Of a stretch of 64,000 nucleotides of DNA, positions 1 through 56,393 are shown piece by piece. The stretch lies in the NCBI RefSeq assembly GCF_029227855.1, contig NZ_CP074356.1; one strand, written 5' to 3'. The notes below the pieces were generated by a model. That model worked only from the letters and a program-made list of their open reading frames with translations, did no database searches and had not been told where the DNA came from. The stretch is from Escherichia coli (GTDB lineage Bacteria > Pseudomonadota > Gammaproteobacteria > Enterobacterales > Enterobacteriaceae). A program made the translations under genes and the position numbers. The stretch's first letter is position 1, and every line of letters begins with the position of its first letter.

Positions 1-1
1 C

Positions 2-2974
2 GCTGCGGACCGGATCATCCGCTGGTCCGATAACGACCAGACGTGGAGCCGTTTCACCTACGATGAACAGGGCCGGTGCGTGAATGTCACCGGGGCGGAG
101 GGCTATTACAACGCCACGCTGGACTATGGTGACGGCTGCACCACCGTGACGGACGGCAAGGGCATTCACCGTTATTACTATGATCCTGACGGCAATATTC
201 TGCGGGAAGCAGCGCCGGACGGCAGCACCACCACGTATGAATGGGATGAATTCCATCACCTGCTGGCCCGTCACTCCCCTGCCGGGCGGGTGGAGAAATT
301 TGAATACAACGCCGCACACGGTCAGTTAAGCCGTTACACGGCGGCAGACGGCGCGGAGTGGCAGTACCGCTATGATGAGCGCGGCCTGCTCAGCAACATC
401 ACCGACCCTGCCGGGCAGACGTGGACACAGCAGTGTGATGAACGCGGCCTGCCGGTAAGTCTGGTGTCGCCACAGGGCGAAGAGACCCGGCTGGCATACA
501 CCGCTCAGGGGCTGCTGTCGGGAATATTCCGCCAGGATGAACGGCGTCTGGGCATAGAGTACGACCACCACAACCGGCCGGAAACACTCACCGACGTGAT
601 GGGCCGTGAACACCACACCGAATACAGCGGTCACGACCTGCCGGTGAAGATGCGCGGCCCCGGCGGTCAGTCAGTGCGGTTGCAGTGGCAGCAGCACCAT
701 AAACTGAGTGGCCTTGAGCGCACTGGCACCGGCGCGGAAGGGTTCAGCTATGACCGCCACGGCAACCTGCTGGCCTGGACGGACGGCAATGGTGTTGTCT
801 GGACAATGGAGTACGGCCCGTTCGATTTGCCGGTGGCGCGAACGGACGGTGAAGGCCACCGCTGGCAGTACCGCTATGATAAAGACACGCTGCAACTGAC
901 AGAAGTCATTAACCCGCAGGGTGAGTCATATCTTTATGTTCTGGATAACTGCGGCCGGGTGACGGAAGAGCATGACTGGGGCGGCGTGGTCTGGCGTTAC
1001 CGCTATGACGCCGATGGCCTGTGTACCGCCAGGGTCAACGGCCTGGAGGAAACCATCCTCTACAGCCGGGACGACGCAGGCCGCCTGGCAGAAGTCATCA
1101 CGCCGGAAGGCAAAACGCAGTATGCGTATGACAAATCCGGCAGGCTGACGGGTATCTTCAGCCCGGACGGCACATCACAGCGCACCGGCTATGACGAACG
1201 CGGGCGGGTGAATGTCACCACTCAGGGCCGACGGGCCATTGAATACCACTACCCCGATGAACACACCGTCATCCGCTGTATCCTGCCACCGGAAGATGAA
1301 CGCGACAGACACCCCGGTGAATCCCTGCTGAAAACCACGTACCGCTACAACGCAGCCGGAGAACTGGCAGAGGTCATCCTGCCGGAGGATGAGACGCTGA
1401 CGTTCAGCCGTGATGAGGCAGGACGTGAAGTGCTCCGGCACAGTAACCGGGGTTTTGCCTGTGAGCAGGGCTGGAATGCAGCCGGTCAGCTTACCAGCCA
1501 GCGCGCCGGACTTTTCCCGGCAGAAGCCACATGGGGCGGGCTGCTCCCCTCACTGGTACGGGAGTACCGTTACGACAGCGCGGGCAATGTGTCGGCTGTC
1601 ACCAGCCGGGAAGATTACGGACGGGAAACTCGCCGGGAGTACCGGCTGGACCGGAACGGCCAGGTCACGGCGGTGACAGCCTCAGGCACCGGGCTGGGCT
1701 ATGGCGAAGGCGATGAGTCCTATGGCTATGACAGTTGTGGCTACCTGAAGGCGCAGTCTGCGGGCAGGCACCGGATAAGTGAAGAGACTGAGCGGTATGC
1801 CGGAGGCCACCGGCTGAAACAGGCCGGAAACACGCAGTATGACTATGACGCCGCAGGCCGGATGGTCAGCCGCACCAGACACCGTAACGGCTATCGCCCG
1901 GAAACAGAGCGGTTCCGGTGGGACAGCCGGGACCAGCTGACCGGGTATTGCAGCGCACAGGGTGAACAGTGGGAATACCGCCACGACGCCAGCGGCAGAC
2001 GGACGGAAAAACGCTGCGACCGGAAGAAAATCCGCTTCACGTACCTGTGGGACGGCGACAGTATTGCGGAAATCCGGGAATACCGCGATGATAAACTGTA
2101 CAGCGTAAGGCACCTGGTGTTTAACGGCTTTGAGCTGATAAGCCAGCAGTTTAGCCGGGTACGGCAGCCGCACCCGTCCGTGGCCCCGCAGTGGGTGACG
2201 CGGACGAATCATGCGGTGAGCGATCTGACGGGCCGTCCGCTGATGCTCTTTAACAGTGAAGGTAAAACCGTCTGGCGACCGGGACAGACCAGCCTGTGGG
2301 GGCTGGCACTCAGCCTGCCCGCGGACACCGGCTACCCGGACCCGCGCGGGGAACTGGACGCGGAAGCCGACCCCGGCCTGCTGTATGCAGGACAGTGGCA
2401 GGATGCGGAATCCGGGCTGTGCTATAACCGGTTCCGGTATTACGAGCCGGAAACAGGGATGTACCTGGTGAGTGATCCGCTGGGGTTGCTGGGGGGTGAG
2501 CAGACTTACCGGTATGTGCCGAATCCGTGTGGGTATGTTGATCCTTTGGGATTAGCAACATGTCCCATAATCAGACAACGGGTGCTGGCTAACCTTGAAG
2601 CCAGTCGGGCAGCAAGGGCTGCATCTAATTTTGGTAAGAAAAATATCTATGATTTTATCAAGGCAACTCAATCTGCTATCCCTGGCACCTCTATCCCAAA
2701 ATCTTTTGAGATTATAACTGCTAATGGTACTTTCTGGGTACACCCAAATGCTACAAAACATATGGCTGAATATTTGACTCGGAACGGTCTCTCACATTCA
2801 ACTTCTGTAGAGAGCCAAATAATGTTAACAAGTTTTCACGAAGCTGTAAGTTTGGCTAGTGCTCAAGGTATAAAGTATGAAGAAATGATGAATGTTGGCG
2901 GCTGGGAACTAGTATTTAGTCAAGCTAAATCTGACTCGGCTTTATCAGTTATTAAACATGCTCTTTATAAATGA
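2..2974 (+). CDS. Rhs-family polymorphic toxin, 5'-truncated by the window edge; YD-repeat core ending in a DPLGL motif, then a ~140-aa C-terminal toxin domain of unassigned family
   Basis: The reading frame is open from position 2 to the stop at 2974. Repeated YDxxGR(L/V) motifs run throughout, and the core ends with RYYEPETGMYLVSDPLGL...YVDPLGL followed by a lower-GC extension (ATCPIIRQ...KHALYK). Confidence 0.85.
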   Translation, partial: AADRIIRWSDNDQTWSRFTYDEQGRCVNVTGAEGYYNATLDYGDGCTTVTDGKGIHRYYYDPDGNILREAAPDGSTTTYEWDEFHHLLARHSPAGRVEKFEYNAAHGQLSRYTAADGAEWQYRYDERGLLSNITDPAGQTWTQQCDERGLPVSLVSPQGEETRLAYTAQGLLSGIFRQDERRLGIEYDHHNRPETLTDVMGREHHTEYSGHDLPVKMRGPGGQSVRLQWQQHHKLSGLERTGTGAEGFSYDRHGNLLAWTDGNGVVWTMEYGPFDLPVARTDGEGHRWQYRYDKDTLQLTEVINPQGESYLYVLDNCGRVTEEHDWGGVVWRYRYDADGLCTARVNGLEETILYSRDDAGRLAEVITPEGKTQYAYDKSGRLTGIFSPDGTSQRTGYDERGRVNVTTQGRRAIEYHYPDEHTVIRCILPPEDERDRHPGESLLKTTYRYNAAGELAEVILPEDETLTFSRDEAGREVLRHSNRGFACEQGWNAAGQLTSQRAGLFPAEATWGGLLPSLVREYRYDSAGNVSAVTSREDYGRETRREYRLDRNGQVTAVTASGTGLGYGEGDESYGYDSCGYLKAQSAGRHRISEETERYAGGHRLKQAGNTQYDYDAAGRMVSRTRHRNGYRPETERFRWDSRDQLTGYCSAQGEQWEYRHDASGRRTEKRCDRKKIRFTYLWDGDSIAEIREYRDDKLYSVRHLVFNGFELISQQFSRVRQPHPSVAPQWVTRTNHAVSDLTGRPLMLFNSEGKTVWRPGQTSLWGLALSLPADTGYPDPRGELDAEADPGLLYAGQWQDAESGLCYNRFRYYEPETGMYLVSDPLGLLGGEQTYRYVPNPCGYVDPLGLATCPIIRQRVLANLEASRAARAASNFGKKNIYDFIKATQSAIPGTSIPKSFEIITANGTFWVHPNATKHMAEYLTRNGLSHSTSVESQIMLTSFHEAVSLASAQGIKYEEMMNVGGWELVFSQAKSDSALSVIKHALYK

Positions 2975-3504
2975 CGATTATGCTTACATTAGAAAATGAA
3001 ACAAACTACAAAGATGTTGTTGTTAATATAGATGAATTTGTACCTTTTGATATAACTTTTGGAAAGGGGAGCGAACAGTGTTTGTACTGGAGAGGCGGCA
3101 ATGGTAAAAGTTCTTTGGTTGAAGTTGGGTTAAATATGTACAGCGGAGAAGTAAGTAACATCACACTAGCAAATATCGATTCAGGTGAAATTAACATTAC
3201 AGATGAGATGTTAGCCAACAACCTTCCTGAAATACAAGGGTCTGTTATATTTCAGACAAGCGAGTGGCTTAATAAAGACATTTCCGAATACTCAAACAGA
3301 TTTATTGATGATTTTGATTGCAATATCAAGTTAATAATTGGTAGTAATTACATTAAATTATTATTTAAAAAAGCAACAAATCCCATTTGTTATATCATTA
3401 ATAGGAATATAAGATTTGGTTTTTCTTTGAGTAGGGAACTTTCGACATTGGAAATATTAGACCTCAATCAAGAAAAATTAGATATTCTAAAGTTATTTAA
3501 ATAG
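2971..3504 (+). CDS. Putative cognate immunity protein for the upstream Rhs toxin domain
   Basis: A 177-aa ORF whose ATG overlaps the toxin stop (ATGA at 2971-2974). It is AT-rich and sits immediately downstream of the toxin, the usual toxin-immunity arrangement. Confidence 0.55.
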   Translation: MTIMLTLENETNYKDVVVNIDEFVPFDITFGKGSEQCLYWRGGNGKSSLVEVGLNMYSGEVSNITLANIDSGEINITDEMLANNLPEIQGSVIFQTSEWLNKDISEYSNRFIDDFDCNIKLIIGSNYIKLLFKKATNPICYIINRNIRFGFSLSRELSTLEILDLNQEKLDILKLFK

Positions 3505-3995
3505 TTTTAGTGTTTGAAACTTACCGAGAGATGATAGCTATGAATGAATACAAAAACATCCATCTTGGAGGAAACAATGGAATGTTAATCCATTAAAAAA
3601 CATACTTCAATATCTTTAGTGAAGAAAGAGTTGTATGAAAGAAATATATCTTATGTGAGCGACATGATGCATGCTAATTATATTATTGGCCGGAAATTTT
3701 ATGATGATAGCAAAAAGGAGGGGTTATTTCTGTAAGAATGGATATACCCGCAGGGTTTGAACCAGACATTTATTTGTTGAAGTCTAAGATCCAAATGGAA
3801 GCATTTATATCCCTCAGATATTATGCGTTGACGGGTTGATAAAGATACTTTTAGAGGGTTAATAAATGGAGAACGTATAATAAATCTCTTAAACAAACTA
3901 TAACCTGTACTAATGAAAAAAATGGGAATAGATAAGTTAATAGCCTATTCTAAAAATGGTAAAGTGGTTTTACTTCCAAAATAATGGAGTTTAGT

Positions 3996-4427
3996 ATGAA
4001 AATCGAAGCTAATTCCCTTACTCATCCCTATGACTACAACGCCTCACTGAACAATTATTTACATTATTTTGAGAATTTCTCTCGTAATGACTGGAATAAA
4101 GATTCATGTGGAGGATATTTTACTTTTAGAGATGATGACAGAGAGTGTGTTTTGTTTTTTGTGAATTATGGTGATAATTTTTCATTGCGCTATGATTGTA
4201 CACAAAGTTCTGATGGAATAGTGTCATGCTGGTATAGTAACCATGAAGATGATAAAATGAATATCATCGTCGATGCTGATACAGAACAATTTATCCCTTT
4301 AGGTTCTTGCTTACCTCCTGATATTACTTTATCAGTAATAAAAGATTTTTTCAAAAATCCTTTAGAGAAATCAAAAAAAGTAAAATGGATGAATGCAGAT
4401 GACATTGACTGGTCATCTGTGTATTAA
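3996..4427 (+). CDS. Hypothetical protein, possible orphan immunity protein
   Basis: An ORF of ~143 aa (from MKIEANS; an upstream ATG at 3984 is also possible) with AT-rich composition, lying in the island downstream of the Rhs toxin. No recognisable catalytic motif. Confidence 0.4.
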   Translation: MKIEANSLTHPYDYNASLNNYLHYFENFSRNDWNKDSCGGYFTFRDDDRECVLFFVNYGDNFSLRYDCTQSSDGIVSCWYSNHEDDKMNIIVDADTEQFIPLGSCLPPDITLSVIKDFFKNPLEKSKKVKWMNADDIDWSSVY

Positions 4428-5289
4428 AGTTGGATTGGATAATTATCTGTTTCAAAAATCATTAAATTTAGAACCTATCTGTTCAACAGAGCTGCCTTGA
4501 ACAGCAGGTTCTTTTATGATGTCCAGGAGCGAATATGCCTGTGATGTCTGGCACTCAGCATCTGACTGACCTGGACTACTGATCCTACTCACACAGGGAG
4601 CTAGACCTGGAAGCAACCTACTGTAAGCAGTGCAGTAGCAGCCCACCTCACATCAGTCCTTGCAAGGTGTGGGCCTTTGTGATCTTGCTCTGTATTGCTG
4701 AGATCCTCAGGAAGGACTCGAAATTTAATCAGGAAGGCCGTTGCTAAAAATCAAAAAATAAATTCAAGAGCAATTTCTAAAACTTTTGAATCTACTGTAT
4801 CGGATGAGGTTTTCACTCCTTTCCAAAAGGTGAGTTTTCAAGCATTCAAGTTTCTGTTATGACCAAAACTTCACCATTTAACACTAATCCGAGTATTATG
4901 TTACCATGAAGAAAAAAGATATTAGATTTGCAATATCCATTAACTCCAACTCAAGTAAGATAGAATTAATGGAAAAATTAAAAACATAATCCCAGGGCTT
5001 ATTGAAATAACTCCCAGTGCATTAAGAGAAGAAAAAACATGGTAGTTATTGAAGATAATGATCTTTATGACTCTATAAAAGCAGAGGGAGTTGATGGATG
5101 GATGTATTATAAATTCATATTATCCATATTCCCATTAAAGGGAGTAGACACAACATTAGAATATCAACGGAAATTATCTTTTCTTTTCTTAAAGAAATTA
5201 AAAGATGCGGGTCTGTTAGGTGAACTTATATGCGAGGATGATTTTCATGACTGATGACCTCTACATATATCCTCAGTTCGTGGCTGGTA

Positions 5290-5631
5290 TTACATGATCT
5301 GACAGGGAAAGATCGTAGCGAAATCAAAAAAGACGTGGATTTCCCGGAAGCCGGTGAAGACACGGCGCTCTGCGACAAGGAGACTAAACCGCCGAGGATA
5401 GCCCAGGGCAGCAGCAACGTTTTTATCAACAATCAGCCTGCCGCACGCCAGGGAGACAAACTGGAGTGCAGTGCGGCGATCGTGGAAGGTTCGCCGGACG
5501 TCTTTATTGGGGGTGAGCAGGTCACCTATCTGGATATCCAGCCGGAGTTCCCGCCGTGGCAGAGAATGATCCTGGGGGGAATAACGATAGCCAGCTATCT
5601 TCTGCCGCCAGCGCAGGGAAAGATCACGTAA
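5290..5631 (+). pseudogene. PAAR-domain fragment, probably the C-terminal part of the N-terminal PAAR region of a T6SS-type Rhs or PAAR protein
   Basis: A GC-rich segment inside the 5254..5631 ORF encodes IAQGSSNVFINNQPAARQGDKLECSAAIVEGSPDVFIGG, matching the PAAR motif pattern. The composition shifts abruptly near 5290, and no credible N-terminus or Rhs core follows. Confidence 0.5.
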
Positions 5632-5700
5632 CGCTGCTTTTTTGTACTAAATAATTCGCACTAAATGTTCAATAATTGAGATATTCCTTATTACCTAAAT
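5614..5700 (+). repeat. Direct repeat copy 1 (~90 bp; cagggaaagatca...tttgtactaaataattcgca...gatattcc.tattacctaaa)
   Basis: About 80% identical by eye to 7645..7738. It lies at the 3' junction of the PAAR fragment. Confidence 0.6.
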
Positions 5701-5750
5701 ACAGTTCCACCAAGATTACCTAAACCCAAATGAGGTAAAAGATAGTGGGT

Positions 5751-6112
5751 ATGAATAAAAATGAAATCCATTTCCCTATAGGATATGGTTGGTTGAATGA
5801 AAAAAAATTATTGGCACCAGTGAATTTAGCCAATTAGAACCATGGTTTTATCTAGATGAGAACAGGTGTTTTTTTGCGAATAAAAAATGGCCAAATGTCA
5901 TAGGTGAACAATTATTCGCTTTTGCTAAACGTCAAGATAATGATGAATTGGCTTGTTTCAAAATTAATGAATCTGGAGTCTGTGAGGGTGTTTATTTAAT
6001 TAATGGGTGGACTCCTAACGGGTTTGATATTATACAATTTTACCCTGATTTTTGGGAATGGGTACATTTGGTTATACAAGATGTCTCGGAGTGGATTGAT
6101 AATAAAGGATAA
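5751..6112 (+). pseudogene. Frameshifted immunity-like gene; any family resemblance (e.g. SMI1/KNR4-like) is tentative
   Basis: ATG at 5751 gives MNKNEIHFPIGYGWLNEKKLLAPVNLAN then a stop. The +1 frame continues KKIIGTSEFSQLEPWFYLDENRCFF...EWIDNKG to 6112. The frame break coincides with an A8 homopolymer near 5803-5810. Confidence 0.35.
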
Positions 6113-6141
6113 TTTGAAACAAAAGTAAAAAACCGCCTTCA

Positions 6142-6840
6142 TTGAAGGTAACGTGGAGTGGTGGGCGGAGCAGCCTGCCCGCAGACACAGACTACCCGGA
6201 CCCGCGCGGGGAGCGGGACGCGGAAGCCGACCCCGGCCTGCTGTATGCAGGACAGTGGCAGGATGCGGAATCCGGACTGTGCTATAACCGGTTCCGGTAT
6301 TACGAGCCGGAAACCGGGATGTACCTGGTGAGTGATCCCCTGGGGTTGCTGGGGGGTGAGCAGACTTACCGGTATGTGCCTAATCCTAGTGGGTATGTTG
6401 ATCCTCTGGGATTAGCAACGTGTCCTATACTCAGACAGTGGGCGCTGACTAACCTTGAAGCCAGTCGGGCAGCAAGGGCTGCATCTAATTTTGGTAAGCC
6501 TCTGGTCCAGCGAAATAAAACGATTGGCGATAAAGTAAGGGATATGATTGCCAAAGAGAGGGGAACCACTCTAATTGAACAAAATTATAGAGTGACAGGA
6601 GGATTAAAGCGTATTGACGTTGTTGATGGAGTAACGGGTATAGAATCTAAAGTCGATCGAACAGGGTTAACAACCCGAGTACGGCAAGAGGTAGCGCGGG
6701 ATATTAAGATTTTGAGAAGTGAGCAACTTGATCAAATTGAATGGGTGTTTACAAGAAGTTCAACTACAGGGAAGATTGGGCCAACTAAACCACTTGAAGA
6801 TCTTTTAAATAAACATGGTATACCGATTATTTATCGATAA
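6142..6840 (+). CDS. Orphan Rhs C-terminal module: core-end repeat (DPLGL) plus an alternative toxin domain, possibly a PD-(D/E)xK-like nuclease
   Basis: Positions ~6176-6500 are near-identical to 2310-2630 (the end of the first Rhs core plus 26 codons). The sequences then diverge into a different C-terminal domain containing RIDVVDGVTGIESKVDRTG. The reported ATG at 6142 is probably not the native start. Confidence 0.7.
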   Translation: MKVTWSGGRSSLPADTDYPDPRGERDAEADPGLLYAGQWQDAESGLCYNRFRYYEPETGMYLVSDPLGLLGGEQTYRYVPNPSGYVDPLGLATCPILRQWALTNLEASRAARAASNFGKPLVQRNKTIGDKVRDMIAKERGTTLIEQNYRVTGGLKRIDVVDGVTGIESKVDRTGLTTRVRQEVARDIKILRSEQLDQIEWVFTRSSTTGKIGPTKPLEDLLNKHGIPIIYR

Positions 6841-6851
6841 GGAGTGATAGT

Positions 6852-7409
6852 GTGAAACTCAAACCGATTGGTGACTTTTTAAACAAAAATGGGTTTATAA
6901 AAAATGGTAACAATGATTTTTATAAAGTTCATGATAAGTTTGTAAATTGTATAAATTTTCAAAAAAAGAGTACAGGTGATATTTTTTTTATAAACACAGG
7001 TGTTCATCCTGTGTTCGAAAATTTTTGCAATGAACCACCGAAAAAAGAAATAGATTGTTACATCCGTAACCGTGTGTGTGATGGACTAAGTATATCTTTG
7101 CTGCATTCTTTTGAAGGTAGTGAGTTTGTTATCAGTGAGATAAAAAACAAAGCGTTTTGTTTTTTTGAATACTTTGATTCATTGAATAAAATATTCGATG
7201 CTATTCGTGTTGTAGATATTGAAGAGAGAAATATTTGCGATGAGCTAAGTGGTGTAAGCAGCGTAAGATTAGCTTTGATGTGTATGAACTACCAGTATGA
7301 GAAAAAAAAATTTAGCCTTGTTTCTGATTTTGCGAACTATGGTCTTGCTATATCTAGAGGCCCGGTACCGAAAAAAGCATTTAAGGATATGATAAAAATA
7401 ACAGAGTGA
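6852..7409 (+). CDS. Putative immunity protein for the orphan Rhs toxin module
   Basis: A 185-aa ORF with a GTG start 12 bp after the toxin stop, preceded by AGGAG at 6841-6845. AT-rich. Confidence 0.5.
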   Translation: MKLKPIGDFLNKNGFIKNGNNDFYKVHDKFVNCINFQKKSTGDIFFINTGVHPVFENFCNEPPKKEIDCYIRNRVCDGLSISLLHSFEGSEFVISEIKNKAFCFFEYFDSLNKIFDAIRVVDIEERNICDELSGVSSVRLALMCMNYQYEKKKFSLVSDFANYGLAISRGPVPKKAFKDMIKITE

Positions 7410-7419
7410 TACCTAATCC

Positions 7420-7650
7420 GGTGTAATACTTGCTGCCTGTGTACCGCGAAGATTAACGGCCGGGAGGAAACTATTCTCTACAACCGGGACGCCACAGGCC
7501 GCCTGGCAGAAGTCATCACGCCGGAAGGCAAAACGCAGTATGCGTATGACAAATCCGGCAGGCTGACGGGTATCTTCAGCCCGGACGACACATCACAGCG
7601 CACCGGCTATGAAGAACGCGGGCGGGTGAATGTCACCACTCAGGGCAGGG
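7420..7650 (+). pseudogene. Internal Rhs core fragment
   Basis: About 215 bp nearly identical to 1021-1230 of the first Rhs core (encoding ...EETILY..RLAEVITPEGKTQYAYDKSGRLTGIFSPD...). Homology is lost at the cagggaaagatca junction. Confidence 0.6.
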
Positions 7651-7739: not shown

Positions 7740-8940
7740 TTATTGCTTATACATGATCAAATACTCCTTACATAATTAAGGAGAACAAAATGGAACTTAA
7801 AAAATTGATGGAACATATTTCTATTATCCCCGATTACAGACAAGCCTGGAAAGTGGAACATAAATTATCGGATATTCTGCTGTTGACTATTTGTGCCGTT
7901 ATTTCGGGTGCAGAAGGCTGGGAAGATATAGAGGATTTTGGGGAAACACATCTCGATTTTTTGAAGCAATATGGTGATTTTGATAATGGTATTCCTGTTC
8001 ACGATACCATCGCCAGAGTTATATCCTGTATCAGTCCTTCAAAATTTCACGAGTGTTTTATTAACTGGATGCGAGATTGCCATACTTCAGATGATAAAGA
8101 CGTCATCGCAATTGATGGAAAAACACTCCGGCATTCTTATGACAAGAGTCGCCGCAAGGGAGCGATTCATGTCATTAGTGCGTTCTCAACAATGCACAGT
8201 CTGGTCATCGGACAGATCAGGACGGATGAGAAATCCAATGAAATTACAGCTATCCCTGAACTTCTTAACATGCTGGATATTAAAGGAAAAATCATCACAA
8301 CTGATGCGATGGGTTGCCAGAAAGATATTGCAGAGAAGATACAAAAACAGGGCGGTGATTATTTATTCGCTGTAAAAGGAAACCAGGGGCGGCTAAATAA
8401 AGCCTTCGAGGAAAAATTTCCGCTGAAAGAATTAAATAATCCAGAGCATGACAGTTACGCCATTAGTGAAAAGAGTCACGGCAGAGAAGAAATCCGTCTT
8501 CATATTGTTTGCGATGTCCCTGATGAACTTATTGATTTCACGTTTGAATGGAAAGGACTGAAGAAATTATGCGTGGCAGTCTCTTTTCGGTCAATAATAG
8601 CAGAACAAAAGAAAGAGCCAGAAATGACGGTCAGATATTATATCAGTTCTGCTGATTTAACCGCAGAGAAGTTCGCCACAGCAATCCGAAACCACTGGCG
8701 CGTGGAGAATAAGCTGCACTGGCGTCTGGACGTGGTAATGAATGAAGACGACTGCAAAATAAGAAGAGGAAACGCCGCAGAATTATTTTCAGGGATACGG
8801 CACATCGCTATTAATATTTTAACGAATGATAAGGTATTCAAGGCAGGGTTAAGACGTAAGATGCGAAAAGCAGCCATGGACAGAAACTATCTCGCGTCAG
8901 TCCTTGCGGGGAGCGGGCTTTCGTAATCTTGCCCTGCGTT
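7740..8940 (+). mobile_element. ISAs1-family (H-repeat) insertion element; boundaries approximate
   Basis: Contains one intact transposase ORF. The terminal inverted repeats could not be delimited by eye. Confidence 0.4.
7790..8926 (+). CDS. ISAs1-family transposase (H-repeat-associated protein; YhhI/YdcC/YbfD-like)
   Basis: A 378-aa ORF ([32 protein letters not shown]...[31 protein letters not shown]) recognised as the H-repeat protein family found inside Rhs elements. Confidence 0.85.
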
Positions 8941-51709: not shown

Positions 51710-52201
51710 TTACTCTGCACAAGCATCAGGCAATCCAGCTCCAATATTTGTTATAAAATAATGCGTAACATTAATTTCACCAACAAAAAAAAGGTTTACG
51801 CTATCCCCTTGCCCTGGTATTTTACCATATTTACACCACACTTTTTTTGTATCTGGATCATTCTCTGATACGATTTTCGCCACTTGTTCCCTGGCCCTCA
51901 CCGTCAATGTTTTCTTAAACCTCCCCCCATCATCGATTGTTAGGGAAAAATAAGAAAAAAAATAATCACCTTCTACATTTGTGGATATTGATATATCCAC
52001 CGCTACATGCGGAAAAAAATCTGGGAGCCATGTAAAAACCCCATCACTTTCTGGTATTGCCATATAGTTTATGTAATGCTTACTTACAAGAGATTCATCT
52101 TTGTGTAAATAAAGATAAGTAGTCACGCATAAAAAAACAACGATTATAATAGCAAAAATAAATATTACCATCTTTGAGATGTTACTTGAGATAGCCAGCA
52201 T
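51710..52201 (-). CDS. Putative immunity protein for the rhsD-locus Rhs toxin, with an N-terminal transmembrane helix
   Basis: An AT-rich ORF of 153-163 aa directly downstream of the Rhs stop, overlapping it or separated by ~10 bp depending on the start. Hydrophobic segment [21 protein letters not shown]. Confidence 0.55.
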
Positions 52202-55200
52202 CTTGTAAAGCCTTTATCGTTTTTTTATGCTCTGGATTAATATAATCAATACATCTATTTGAGCAATCTTGTGTTAATGGACATGTCAACCCATGTTCAT
52301 TTACAGCCAAGTCTTTTTTATTATCTTCAATCATCTCAGAATGGGATAACTTTACTTTTCTGCCGTACATACCGAACATATTTAACCCGTAATCTCTAAT
52401 CTCTTTTTCATAACCCAGCCCTTTCGCTGATCGGCTAACACCAGCGTCATTTAATTTAGACACTCGACAAAATGCCATACAATGGAAAAATTGATCAGTC
52501 CCACCTAAATTTAATCTCTTCATATCATCATAAGTATCAGATAATATATCCCATGCTCTTTGATGGTTTAGTTGTTCTTTTTTTCGCATTAACGCTACAT
52601 CTGCAGGACTTAACCCTAATGGATCAATACCATTCACCGGATTCAGCGGATACGCATACAGACTCCATCCCCCCGCCAGCCCAATCGGGTCCTGAGCAAT
52701 ATATCGTCCCAGCAACGGATTGTAGTACCGGTTCCGGTTATAATACAGCCCTGACTCCTCATCGTGTTGCTGCCCTGGCAGACGGTACGGCTGGTGCAGG
52801 TGATGCGGGTTTTCCTCATTCAGCAGGTTTCCCCACTCATCATACTCCCCGCTCCACGCCGTATTGCCGTCTTCGCTGATGAGCGCCAGCGGCAGCCCCC
52901 GGTGGTCACAGTGATAAAGATGAATTTTTCGCTCAGGTAAATAAACCGGCTCTATCTGTGCCGCCAGCCGCTCCACCGTCAGCCCGCACTGTGCCAGCCA
53001 CTGGCGGCTTTCACTGCTCACGCGGTCTGCCCGGATTTCCCCCTCCAGCCTGTCCAGCAGCCGCACCAGTTCAGCCGGGAACACCACGCCGTGTCCGTCC
53101 TCGCTCCCTTCCTGCTGGAGCTTCTCCGCCAGGCTGCGGCGCTGCGCTTTCTCCCGCTCGCCGTTCTCTGTCTCGACCCGGATGAGCGGCGTGAAGCTTC
53201 CCGGCTGGTACACCGTCTGGATACGCGTGGTGTCGGTCTGTACTGTCGCCAGCCTGTCGCCGTCCCACCCGTACCACGTTACCTCCGGTTTACGCGACAG
53301 CGACATCCACCCCGTCAGGTCACGCTCCCGCCGCCATACCCGTTTCGCCATTCGCCATCCCAGCGGGTCGTAGAGGTAGCGGCTCTCGACCAGTGGCTCG
53401 CCATGCTGTATCCGCGTGTAGAACACCAGGCGGTGCTGGCTGTCGTAGTGGTAGTGGTGGGTCCGCTCGTCGTCCGTCCGTATCACACCCGCCGGGATGC
53501 GGTCCGTCTTCTCTGTCAGCCTGCCGTATTCATCGTGGCGGTAGACATAGTGCGCATCCTCCGCGATGCGGTTATCCGGCCACGCCGTGAGTGTACTGTC
53601 CGGGTGCAGCTCCGGGTCCGGCAGCCGGTTGCCCGCCGGGTCCGTGGCATACGGGATGCGGATGTCCAGGTCCGGTGCGAGGGTGCGTACACTCGCCAGC
53701 CTGCCCGTGGCACTGTAGCCGTATTCCCGCGTCTGTCGCGGGCCGCTGATGCGCACAAGGTCGCCGTTGTCATTCCACCCGTAGTCACGGTCATACACCA
53801 GGCTGTTCAGGTGCTGGCTCTGTAACTGGCCTGCAGGGGTGTATGTGCTGGTCAGTTCGTATGCGGCATTACTGCCTGCCATGCTGCCAAAGCTGCGCAC
53901 CGTTTCTCTGTGCAGGCGGTCGCGCGCGTACTCCAGCAGCGGCGTGTCGCCCAGCTTCATGCCCGCCAGATAACCGCTACCGTAGGTCAGCCACTCCACC
54001 GGCGGCAGGCTGTCCGGCGTGACGCGGTTTGCCAGCCCCTGTTCGTTGTATGCCTGTTTCGTCTCATGCTGCCACAGCAGTTCCCCCGTCTCCGGGTTCT
54101 TCACCGTCTGGTGCTCACTGGTCAGACGGCCTTTATCGTCATAGCCGTAGTGGACCGCCACACGGTGGCCTTCGCTCAGGTGGCTGATTTCTCTCAGCCA
54201 GCCGTGGCCATCATACTGCCACTGCTCTGCCGGTTCGCCGTTCACCGTGCGGTGAGTGAGGCGGTCCGATTCGTCGTAGTGCCAGAGGGTGACAAGCCCC
54301 TCATCTTCACTCTGCGTGAGTTTTCCGGTCAGGTCATAATGATAACGTTGCGTCCGCCCGTCAAAGCCGCTCTGCTGTACCAGCCGGTCCAGTGCGTCGT
54401 AACGGAAGGCGCTGTCACTGCCGTTCTCGTTGGTCAGCGTGGCGACACGTCCTGCCGCGTCATACTCCATACTGCGCGTCAGCCCGCCCTGCGTGGTGCT
54501 GACCGCTTTTCCCCACGCATCGTACTGTGTCTCGCTCCGGTTGCCGCCCGGGGTGATAACGGCAGTCAGGTCGCCTGCGGCGTTGTACTCATACTGCGTT
54601 TCACGGCCCTGTGCGTCTTTCACCGAGGTTAACCGGCCACGGTTGTCATAGTGGCGGTAAAGGCTGATGCCTTCCTCGCGGTGGACCGCCGTCATCTGGC
54701 CGAAGCGGTCATACTCATAGCGGGTCTGGTAGCCCGAGCAGTCGGTGAACGCCAGCAACTGACCGTAGCGGCTCCAGGTCATCTGCCGGGTGCTGCCCGT
54801 CGCATCTGTTGTCGTGGCCGGTAATTCACTGTGCGGATTATCATAAGCATACCGGATGACGTCCCCACTGCGCGATGTCTCCGATACCAGCCTGTCCCGC
54901 TCATCATACGCCCGGCGGCTCTCCAGCCCGTCCGGGTACACCACCGCCGTCACCAGGTTCCCGTCGTTATAGTAAAATTTCGTCTCCCGCCCGTCCGGCG
55001 TGGTGATGTCCGTGATGTCGCCTGACACCACATTCAGACCGTACTCTGTCCGCCGTCCCGCCGCGTCCGTCTGCGCCGTAAGCCGCCCCACCGGGTCATA
55101 CCCGCTGCGCGTGACGCTGCCGTCCGCCAGTTCTTTTTTCACCACCCGCTTCAGCCCGGCCCCGCCTTCTGTATGCAGCACCTCACGCCGGTTCAGGCTG

Positions 55201-56393
55201 TCCGTGACGGTGATGCGGTCCTGCTCATACTGGTAGCGGTAACTCAGGCCTGCCGGGTTCAGCTGCTCCACCACCCGCCCCGCATCGTCGTAGCGGTAGC
55301 GCATCTCCGGCCTTCCCGCGTAACGGTGCGCCACCATCCGGCCCGGGTGCTGCGCGTCATACGTGAAAGCGCGCACCTGCGTATTGCTGCGGTCATATAC
55401 CGCCAGCAGTTCACCGGCTTCCGTATACGTGTACCGCACCAGTGGCGCACCGGGCAGGCTCTCCGGGTATGCCGGGTCGTGCATCAGCCACACCGCCGAA
55501 AGACGGATGCCCCTGTCGGGGCCGTATTCGGTACCGGGCAGTGTGTCGGGGAACGCTGAGGCTGAAAGAGGGCGGGGGGTGTCAGGGGAAAATAAGGAAG
55601 CGGTGTGCTGTTTACGGGCCTCTTCCGCCCGCTGCGCCTGCGTGGTCAGCACCAGACGGAACTCCCGCCCGGCACCGTCCGTCACGCCGGTGATTTCCCC
55701 GGCCAGGTCACCGGCGGCCTCACGCCGGTACGTCAGCGTCTGCCCGAAGCGGTCCGCCAGCCCGGTAAGCACCCGGTACGGCGGCAGCGGCGCTGGCAGT
55801 ACGTCCTCAGTGCCCGGCACCCGCTCTGACCACCCCAGTATCCACCACGGTCCCTGTGCGCTGTTGGTCGCCAGGTAAAGATGCGGGCTTAACCGGATAT
55901 CCGGCGGCAGCGACGCCCACAGCCGTGCCAGCGTGTGGCCGTCCGGCTGCGCTGCCTTACCACCGCGAACCAGCCACATTGACTCGCTGCGGCTGTACAC
56001 CGCCCCCCCCGGCAGCAGCGGCTCAAAGTGAATGCTCCGTCCGCCGTTGTCGTTGAGTACCAGTGCATCATCGCGTATCTGTAAGCGGATATCAGAAGGC
56101 GCTTTCCAGCCGGGGCCAAAAATCCCCACCGGCGCAGGCGTCTTCGTCCGGTAGCTGCTGTAGGTGCGGGAGAGAATGAACGGCAGCGGGCCGGGCAGCG
56201 CAAGGTCCGTCTCGCCGGGCAGCACCTTCGCCCCCAGCAGCGGATTTACCGGGTTGCCCGAAGTCATCCTGCCCGGACACACCGAGCACGCCACGCCGGT
56301 GGGCGCGCCAATTCTTACACCTGCCGAACCCTGGACAATGGGACCGCCATACTGAGTCATATCTCCCTGACGCGCCGCTGGTTTTCCGCTCAT
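52182..56393 (-). CDS. Full-length Rhs polymorphic toxin at the K-12 rhsD position, with a Cys/His-rich C-terminal toxin domain of unassigned family
   Basis: 1403 aa with a PAAR-like N-terminus [33 protein letters not shown], extensive YD repeats, a DPIGL...DPLGL core end, then a ~145-aa tail with a compositional drop. It lies next to ybbP, as rhsD does in K-12. Confidence 0.9.

Follow-up and report, generated by a model that had tools for sequence, protein, structure and literature searches.

A probable pre-toxin junction module between the Rhs cleavage site and unrelated toxin domains in Escherichia coli

Why do two rhs toxin tips in the same island of Escherichia coli, one at the end of a main gene and the other in an orphan fragment downstream, share a near-identical stretch of 28 codons between the DPLGL cleavage site and two unrelated toxin domains? 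The question arises in a 64,000-nucleotide stretch of an E. coli chromosome (assembly GCF_029227855.1, contig NZ_CP074356.1), which is referred to here as the window. We suggest that the shared 84-bp segment, called the linker below, probably encodes a self-contained pre-toxin module made up of a helix of about 20 residues and short flanks, placed between DPLGL and the toxin. That the linker is an autonomous junction module is very likely, whereas a specific role in delivery or entry is put forward only tentatively. The parts of the two tips that are needed for the argument are as follows, all on the plus strand.

1 to 2554, plus strand: YD-repeat core, the 3' part of the main rhs gene; the window opens inside the core, and the open reading frame (ORF) runs off the window start.
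80 to 2974, plus strand: main rhs ORF as given in the ORF list, ending at 2974.
2540 to 2554, plus strand: DPLGL at the main core end, which reads PNPCGYVDPLGL in translation.
2555 to 2638, plus strand: linker copy 1, ATCPIIRQRVLANLEASRAARAASNFGK, fused straight to the DPLGL cleavage site and sharing 77/84 bases with copy 2.
2639 to 2974, plus strand: toxin domain 1, judged a homologue of the EF-Tu-dependent transfer RNA (tRNA) nuclease domain of CdiA-CT EC869.
6142 to 6840, plus strand: orphan ORF, from the ORF list and its translation.
6171 to 6414, plus strand: orphan rhs fragment with the last 81 core codons, core end PNPSGYVDPLGL, DPLGL at 6400 to 6414.
6415 to 6498, plus strand: linker copy 2, ATCPILRQWALTNLEASRAARAASNFGK, from the translation and the alignment to copy 1.
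6499 to 6840, plus strand: toxin domain 2, with a D...E-x-K signature (IDVVDGVTGIESK).

The translation of the main gene continues from its core end through linker copy 1 into KNIYDF..., and that of the orphan from its own core end through copy 2 into PLVQRNK.... The true alignment of the two copies has a shift of 3860 bases. Counted from the codon that follows DPLGL, copy 1 starts at 2555 (main gene) and copy 2 at 6415 (orphan), and their common reading is ATCPI(I/L)RQ(R/W)(V/A)L(A/T)NLEASRAARAASNFGK. The identity of 77/84 bases in the linker follows one of 232/249 in the preceding core end (2306-2554). All seven differences lie in codons 1-12 (three synonymous, four changing the amino acid), and the 3' 50 bases of the linker (2589-2638) match perfectly. 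The last matching base is the g of aag at 2638, after which come seven mismatches in succession; over the 84 bases past the linker, 18/84 are identical, which is the chance level. Homology of the orphan to the main gene is confined to 2311-2638 against 6171-6498, that is, to the 3' core end (244 bp) and the linker (84 bp), making a direct repeat of 328 bp with its copies 3.9 kb apart; the longest perfect blocks measure 60 bp (core) and 50 bp (3' end of the linker). An earlier note on this DNA had reported a near-identical segment after DPLGL in both tips, an abrupt stop of DNA identity and a point of divergence inside the cleaved C-terminal fragment, and all three hold, the last at 28 codons past DPLGL with autocleavage taken from the literature. 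Its coordinates (2552-2635 and 6421-6500) are off by three to six bases and imply an offset of 3869, under which the copies fail to align, and the 26 codons in its title should read 28.

The linker might be an extension of the core, either as the P' side of the Rhs aspartyl-protease site or as a plug of the cage, and thus belong to the constant scaffold. It adjoins DPLGL, and its GC content (0.51-0.52) is intermediate between that of the core (0.62) and those of the toxins (0.37-0.40) and immunity genes (0.31). Moreover, A-[TIV]-C-P directly after DPLGL (2555-2566, 6415-6426) recurs in tips that have no helix, as AICPVMYD... in the main gene of strain 503440 and as AVCPKSES... in a further protein (P0029). 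In Vibrio parahaemolyticus RhsP, a partly ordered core-toxin linker has been reported inside the cage (Tang et al. 2022, via bioRxiv 10.1101/2024.02.26.582050). However, the same locus in other E. coli carries the identical core end followed by AKTSVPVSIV... (locus L005) or a near-identical one followed by AICPVMYDWYK... (strain 503440), in both cases with no linker, and fragments in protein collections continue past the core end with AASSKISS..., NKGG... or GILPQN.... The family of toxin 2 is also found in Rhs proteins of Pectobacterium, Yersinia, Morganella and Proteus, in which the connector after DP(F/L)GL is only 7-8 residues long and lacks the linker (the joins read DKKGAAS-QVQKNK, SGTSQLST-VQKNK and AVCPKSES-QVQKNK). 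In addition, the linker motif occurs in LXG and CdiA-like proteins, which have no cage, and in non-enterobacterial Rhs proteins it is found about 200 residues downstream of the core end. Because identical core ends carry linker-free tips, the linker is not core; the wider alignment of tips called for by the earlier note thus excludes a linker that is mere core, and the extended-core explanation in general is unlikely. The A-x-C-P at the start of the segment may be a separate feature tied to the context of the cleavage site, because it is found also in the tips without the helix.

The linker is also not bound to particular toxins. A 67-residue query of core end plus linker against a set of 5.8 billion proteins gave 19 candidates, all short fragments, which revealed a third toxin as well as linker-free tips. 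A profile of four linker variants was used, with no word filter, in an exhaustive search of 1.84 billion representative proteins, and among Rhs tips the matches followed the pattern DPxGL-A[TG]CP-x-I-[KR]-Q-R-[VI]-L-[AD]-N-[LIV]-[EA]-[AS]-S-[KR]-A-A-R-x-x-S-[NK]-F. According to the source records of these matches, together with a Salmonella fragment found earlier, linker-bearing Rhs proteins are present in at least seven enterobacterial genera, namely in E. coli, Salmonella, Superficieibacter, Serratia fonticola, Dickeya oryzae, Photorhabdus and Xenorhabdus. The variants differ conservatively (I/L/V, R/K, A/S, E/A) and precede at least eight unrelated toxins: toxin 1, toxin 2, a ribonuclease (RNase) A-like domain (PF18431), TNT (PF14021), an HNH-like domain and three of unknown kind. 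For the RNase A-like third toxin, DNA similarity to the window reaches as far as the F codon of SKF and ends there. Toxin 2 has the linker in the Salmonella fragment and in an E. coli Rhs protein whose core end differs. Both toxin families of the window also occur linker-free elsewhere, so that no covariation of the linker with one toxin family is seen.

In complete E. coli genomes, the linker is rare, being found in 136 of 5426, at 246 places; toxin 1 (135 places) and toxin 2 (114 places) account for them. In strain 503440, the orphan copy of the toxin 1 tip (6001-6093 of its locus) has a 9-bp tandem duplication (GCAAGGGCT) within the linker, giving AARAARAAS, and a class of E. coli matches covers only linker bases 1-69 because of a duplication of this type. 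The strict pattern L[AT]NLEASRAAR gave one site only, probably by chance, in an actinobacterial metagenome-assembled genome, a result which shows only that the E. coli spelling is rare, and among the 17 sites found with the linker alignment pattern in species-representative genomes none was supported by tblastn.

Beyond Rhs, the conserved part of the linker can be written as [KR]-x-x-[VI]-L-x-N-[LIV]-x-x-S-[KR]-x-A-R-x-[SA]-S-[NK]-F, or more fully as P-x3-[KR]-[QE]-x-[VI]-L-x-N-[LIV]-[EA]-x-S-[KR]-x-A-R-x-[SA]-S-[NK]-F. The same profile search detected LXG (type VII) toxins of Streptococcus ruminantium, in which two tandem copies (...REQILKNLEESRLARESSNF...) stand before Ntox15 or another toxin, as well as proteins with three copies and one with two copies before a PT-HINT domain. 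One further match, a eukaryotic Gar1/Naf1-like repeat protein, was dismissed as a low-complexity false match. Metagenomes were scanned with a degenerate DNA pattern for [VI]-L-x-N-x-[EAD]-x-S-x-x-A-R-[EAD]-x-S-[NK]-F, and at least 120 contigs with at least 143 copies of the motif were found, all 143 being in frame within ORFs. The results that follow are for the matches listed. Positions left free by the pattern are conserved as well (basic at -3 in 97%, Q or R at -1 in 87%, Y at +19 in 79%). In LXG and CdiA-like toxins, about 100-290 residues always separate the motif from the C terminus, and the distance from the motif to the ORF end has a median of 166 residues (10-90% range 106-253) over the 130 copies with a complete 3' end. 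When clustered on their C-terminal 100 residues, since whole downstream regions merge toxins through the repeat units common to them, the C-terminal regions form at least 29 clusters, a few of which are truncated fragments, leaving more than 25 distinct ones. Pfam identified EndoU, two deaminase families, an ADP-ribosyltransferase, a barnase-type RNase, Ntox30, Ntox46 and TNT downstream of the motif, and LXG, RHS repeats or DUF637 with haemagglutinin repeats (CdiA-like, type V) upstream of it. The motif is thus tied to toxins of at least three secretion systems (types V, VI and VII), and every downstream toxin family identified by Pfam, as well as the Ntox15 of the LXG protein, acts on cytoplasmic substrates. 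No Pfam model covered the motif in any protein scanned and none exists in NCBIfam; its profile gave only sub-threshold matches to HMG-CoA reductase among PDB sequences, and text searches of the literature with motif strings and linker descriptions returned no account of it.

Several further features were noted in passing. In LXG-type toxins the motif often occurs in two or three tandem copies with a period of 55-58 residues, the repeat unit being ...SLNKSPLVSRELPKVKG.HDVE.PKYNREQILKNLEES+LARESSNFDQYLAKEK..., and such repeats were seen at 13 metagenome loci. The number of copies varies among related LXG ORFs, which suggests unequal crossing-over at the junction. At another locus (L063) the motif directly follows a HINT C-terminal ...LLVHNTAEC junction.

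Where the motif ends, the constant part of the protein ends too. Three metagenomic loci (L058, L065 and L124) each carry two motif-bearing ORFs with differing toxins, and the identity between these paralogues is 92-95% in the 60 residues upstream and 88-94% in the motif, falls to 56-89% over the next nine residues, and is 7-11% from position +10 onward. The similarity between paralogues therefore ends about 0-10 residues past the S-[NK]-F end of the motif, both in the window and in the unrelated LXG loci. Among the matches listed, 79 ORFs have a complete 5' end; in 27 of these the stretch before the motif is shorter than 130 residues, and in some the motif itself opens the ORF, which is the pattern expected of orphan cassettes such as that in the window. 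The end of the motif is thus a general boundary between the constant part and the swappable toxin, and it recurs in unrelated toxin loci. The earlier note had called this point a recombination breakpoint. The boundary of identity is there, but the data show a general property of the motif end rather than a single event in this strain, and the finding is correct and more general than had been proposed.

It should be considered whether all this could be a neutral leftover, in which the two tips descend from one recent ancestral tip whose replacement happened to break 28 codons in, leaving a segment with no function. Several observations weigh against an autonomous module, and some of them suit such a leftover directly. 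The linker is rare in complete E. coli genomes and is paired there only with the two toxins of the window, usually adjacent in one locus, so that shared ancestry fits locally. The four replacement against three silent differences in the first 12 codons indicate weak constraint in that part, and the orphan copy of strain 503440 tolerates a slippage duplication of three codons. With regard to the wider distribution, the link to Gram-positive bacteria consists of a motif of 17-24 residues with whole-library E-values of 2.5e-5 and 4.6e-4, for which convergence of a short helix is possible; 101 of the 143 metagenomic copies belong to one LXG-like group; and the search pattern itself dictates six positions of the motif. 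In one protein (P0059), two copies of the motif stand directly before the N-terminal Cys of a HINT domain, and if HINT cleaves at its own N terminus, the motif stays with the carrier, which does not fit a role in travelling with the toxin. However, a conservatively varied segment (I/L, R/K, A/S, E/A) precedes the eight or more unrelated toxins in the enterobacterial genera, its core motif returns in LXG and CdiA-like toxins, breakpoints cluster at the motif end in independent loci, and the other occurrences differ in DNA and in flanks, unlike recent horizontal copies of one segment. We consider the neutral explanation quite improbable, and somewhat more so than an extended core.

Less probable again is an element that works as DNA or RNA rather than as peptide, such as a terminator-like hairpin, an internal promoter or a recombination hotspot within the 50 perfectly matching bases. 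The perfect block of both copies contains a hairpin with a stem of 5 bp (GCAGCAAGGGCTGC) and a T-rich run after it, and internal promoters have been reported for rhs 3' regions of enterohaemorrhagic E. coli (EHEC) and Salmonella. The hairpin, GCAGC-AAGG-GCTGC followed by ATCTAATTTT, is formed by the AARAAS codons (2609-2622 and 6469-6482), and the scan scored it as terminator-like. However, such sites number 4 observed against 3.9 expected in shuffled sequence, the RNA fold z-score is -0.74, Rfam gave no match, no promoter-like site was seen in the linker, and other taxa conserve the peptide with different codons.

Neither tip has a match in Pfam, and the toxins were compared through their predicted structures. 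The AlphaFold2 model of toxin 1 has a predicted local distance difference test (pLDDT) value of 83.6, exceeding 90 for most of the domain, and matches PDB chain 7vmc_B with 64% identity and a template modeling (TM) score of 0.92; phmmer aligns it to residues 182-306 of that chain with E = 8e-41. Chain B of 7vmc is the EF-Tu-dependent tRNA nuclease of CdiA-CT EC869 (PMC9071432), and the alignment to this domain starts only from about residue 29 of the tip. The product of immunity gene 1 matches 7vmc_C, 'Contact-dependent inhibitor I', with a phmmer E-value of 3e-18. As judged from these matches, toxin 1 is clearly a homologue of the EC869-type EF-Tu-dependent tRNA nuclease with a cognate CdiI-like immunity protein. 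Homologues of toxin 1 elsewhere, the CdiA-CT EC869 construct included, follow unrelated Gly/Ala-rich '...TGTVFDSIKATQ' regions and are linker-free. The immunity protein (WP_001370340.1) is probably RhsFI of EHEC (PMC7618764); in the available text of that study the RhsF toxin is likened to BpuSI/FokI-type nucleases and described as non-toxic, and a relationship to EF-Tu-dependent tRNA nucleases is not mentioned there. Toxin 2 was modeled with low confidence (pLDDT 65), and its fold resembles those of T7 endonuclease I and BamHI only weakly; it is probably, though tentatively, a nuclease with the restriction endonuclease fold.

In the models of both tips, residues 4-23 form a single helix (pLDDT 51-61 in the main tip and 69-75 in the orphan), which is followed by a connector of 6-7 residues. 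That this helix is an integral element of both toxin folds, serving for instance in folding or immunity binding, is very improbable: it is translated with the toxin and remains attached after cleavage, but the two toxins are unrelated, its model confidence is well below that of toxin domain 1, and the linker lies outside the folds because the solved homologue of toxin 1 and the relatives of toxin 2 lack the helix. The linker is a separate module, then, neither core nor toxin fold.

What the module does at the protein level is the least certain part of the explanation. Autoproteolysis directly after DPxGL is described in the literature as freeing the Rhs tip, and a toxin cut free at DPLGL would carry the helix as its N terminus. 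We favor the view that the helix may act as a toxin-proximal adaptor, which would either keep the toxin separable from its carrier or act once the toxin has been released, for instance while it enters the cytoplasm of the target. Because conservation at the protein level spans three secretion systems (types V, VI and VII), its function would be independent of the Rhs cage, and the step served by the helix is most likely one that is not tied to the secretion machine. A role of the shared linker in delivery or translocation, which the earlier note had raised, is plausible on sequence grounds because the motif is conserved across secretion systems and the identified downstream toxins act in the cytoplasm. 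The invariant positions of the linker are L11, N13, S17, A20, R21, S24 and F26. In the predicted helix, the face formed by N13, S17, A20/R21 and S24, together with F26, looks more like a binding surface than a passive spacer. In a bolder form, to which we give less than even credence, the linker would represent, in enterobacterial Rhs proteins, a universal pre-toxin helix of type V, VI and VII toxins that serves such a machine-independent step for cytoplasm-acting toxins. The candidates for this step, equally tentative, would be engagement of a conserved factor of the target cell or crossing of its cytoplasmic membrane.

At the DNA level, a RecA-type crossover anywhere in the 328-bp repeat would fuse toxin 2 to the full-length Rhs protein and at the same time remove toxin 1 and its immunity gene. 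Main-orphan recombination that fuses an orphan toxin to full-length Rhs has reportedly been described for Salmonella.

The remaining features of the island and its surroundings are listed here.

2971 to 3504, plus strand: immunity gene 1, a CdiI homologue by its match, RefSeq WP_001370340.1, annotated as 'RNA-binding protein'.
5314 to 5613, plus strand: PAAR-proximal 5' rhs fragment of 300 bp, 94% identical to nucleotides 718-1017 of the full-length rhs gene of strain JNEC-KY178.
5614 to 6170: about 550 bp of unrelated AT-rich DNA between the PAAR-region fragment and the orphan.
6852 to 7409, plus strand: immunity gene 2, encoding a DUF4304 protein, from the ORF and the RefSeq annotation of JNEC-KY178 and L005.
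7790 to 8926: ISAs1-family transposase gene, directly after the orphan cassette and before nfrB, forming the right bound of the island.
52182 to 56393, minus strand: a second, classical Rhs gene with a 1403-codon ORF, which does not contain the linker motif.

The whole arrangement can be read from strain JNEC-KY178, to which window bases 1-7500 are 99.8% identical. In the cusS-nfrB interval of that strain, the order is vgrG, a gene for a DcrB-like chaperone, a PAAR-rhs gene of 1609 codons, an immunity gene, fragments, the orphan rhs tip, the DUF4304 gene and the ISAs1 transposase; the fragment corresponding to 5314-5613 is annotated there as a partial PAAR pseudogene. Because this PAAR-region fragment precedes the orphan, the orphan looks like a second rhs copy that has lost its middle, and we infer from the sequence that it is a remnant with an internal deletion rather than simply a displaced tip. 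In strain 362, most of the main rhs gene is lost (it is annotated as a truncated PAAR pseudogene) and the orphan is kept.

The motif bears on two questions that are open in the field: how cytoplasm-acting toxins of type VI and VII systems enter their targets, and where cassettes are exchanged outside CdiA (VENN) and Rhs (DPxGL). A motif of 24 residues that stands before nucleases, deaminases, NADases and ADP-ribosyltransferases in three delivery systems is a small and mutable handle for both. It redefines the start of the tip wherever Rhs toxins are cut in silico at DPxGL, can be used to search for new toxin domains and orphan cassettes, and suggests a natural fusion point for payload engineering. 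If the universal helix is real, it would be a portable delivery tag as well as a junction for cassette exchange.

Among known systems, the closest framework is the main/orphan architecture of Rhs tips, with the demarcation PxxxxDPxGL, which has reportedly been described in several studies (Jackson 2009, Poole 2011, Koskiniemi 2014). The window resembles it in its GC-rich core, AT-rich tips and immunity genes, and in an orphan that keeps a piece of core as a recombinogenic direct repeat; both core ends fit PxxxxDPxG(L/W/F), and a small immunity gene lies immediately 3' of each toxin. However, the field places a sharp boundary at DPxGL, whereas here the variable region does not begin right at that point: 77/84 identity continues for 28 codons, over a segment that forms a separate module. 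The N-terminal part of CdiA-CT is reported to be a domain for entry into the cytoplasm (Willett et al. 2015). Such entry domains are folded, comprise roughly 100-150 residues and select an inner-membrane protein. Like them, the linker is a common N-terminal part of the cleaved fragment that can be joined to different toxins, and the toxin 1 family itself is delivered by CdiA EC869 behind such a domain; in contrast, the linker has 28 residues with one predicted helix of about 20 and falls well short of the size of an entry domain. The linker of RhsP can be compared with that of the window by position only, and the motif profile had no match to any PDB chain.

The best comparison is with the pre-toxin junction modules PT-VENN and DUF637 in CdiA, PT-TG and PT-HINT (Zhang et al. 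2012, PMC3482391). Like these, the linker lies between delivery scaffold and toxin, has promiscuous toxin partners, marks the point of cassette exchange and is kept at the 5' end of the orphan cassette. It differs from them in sequence, matching none of PT-VENN, PT-TG, PT-HINT and DUF637 and having no Pfam or NCBIfam model, and in its size of about 24 residues (one helix), sometimes in tandem with the 55-58 residue period. The linker is apparently a new and so far unannotated member (in Pfam, NCBIfam and PDB sequences) of this class of pre-toxin junction modules, with a motif that spans three secretion systems, whereas VENN is found in type V only.

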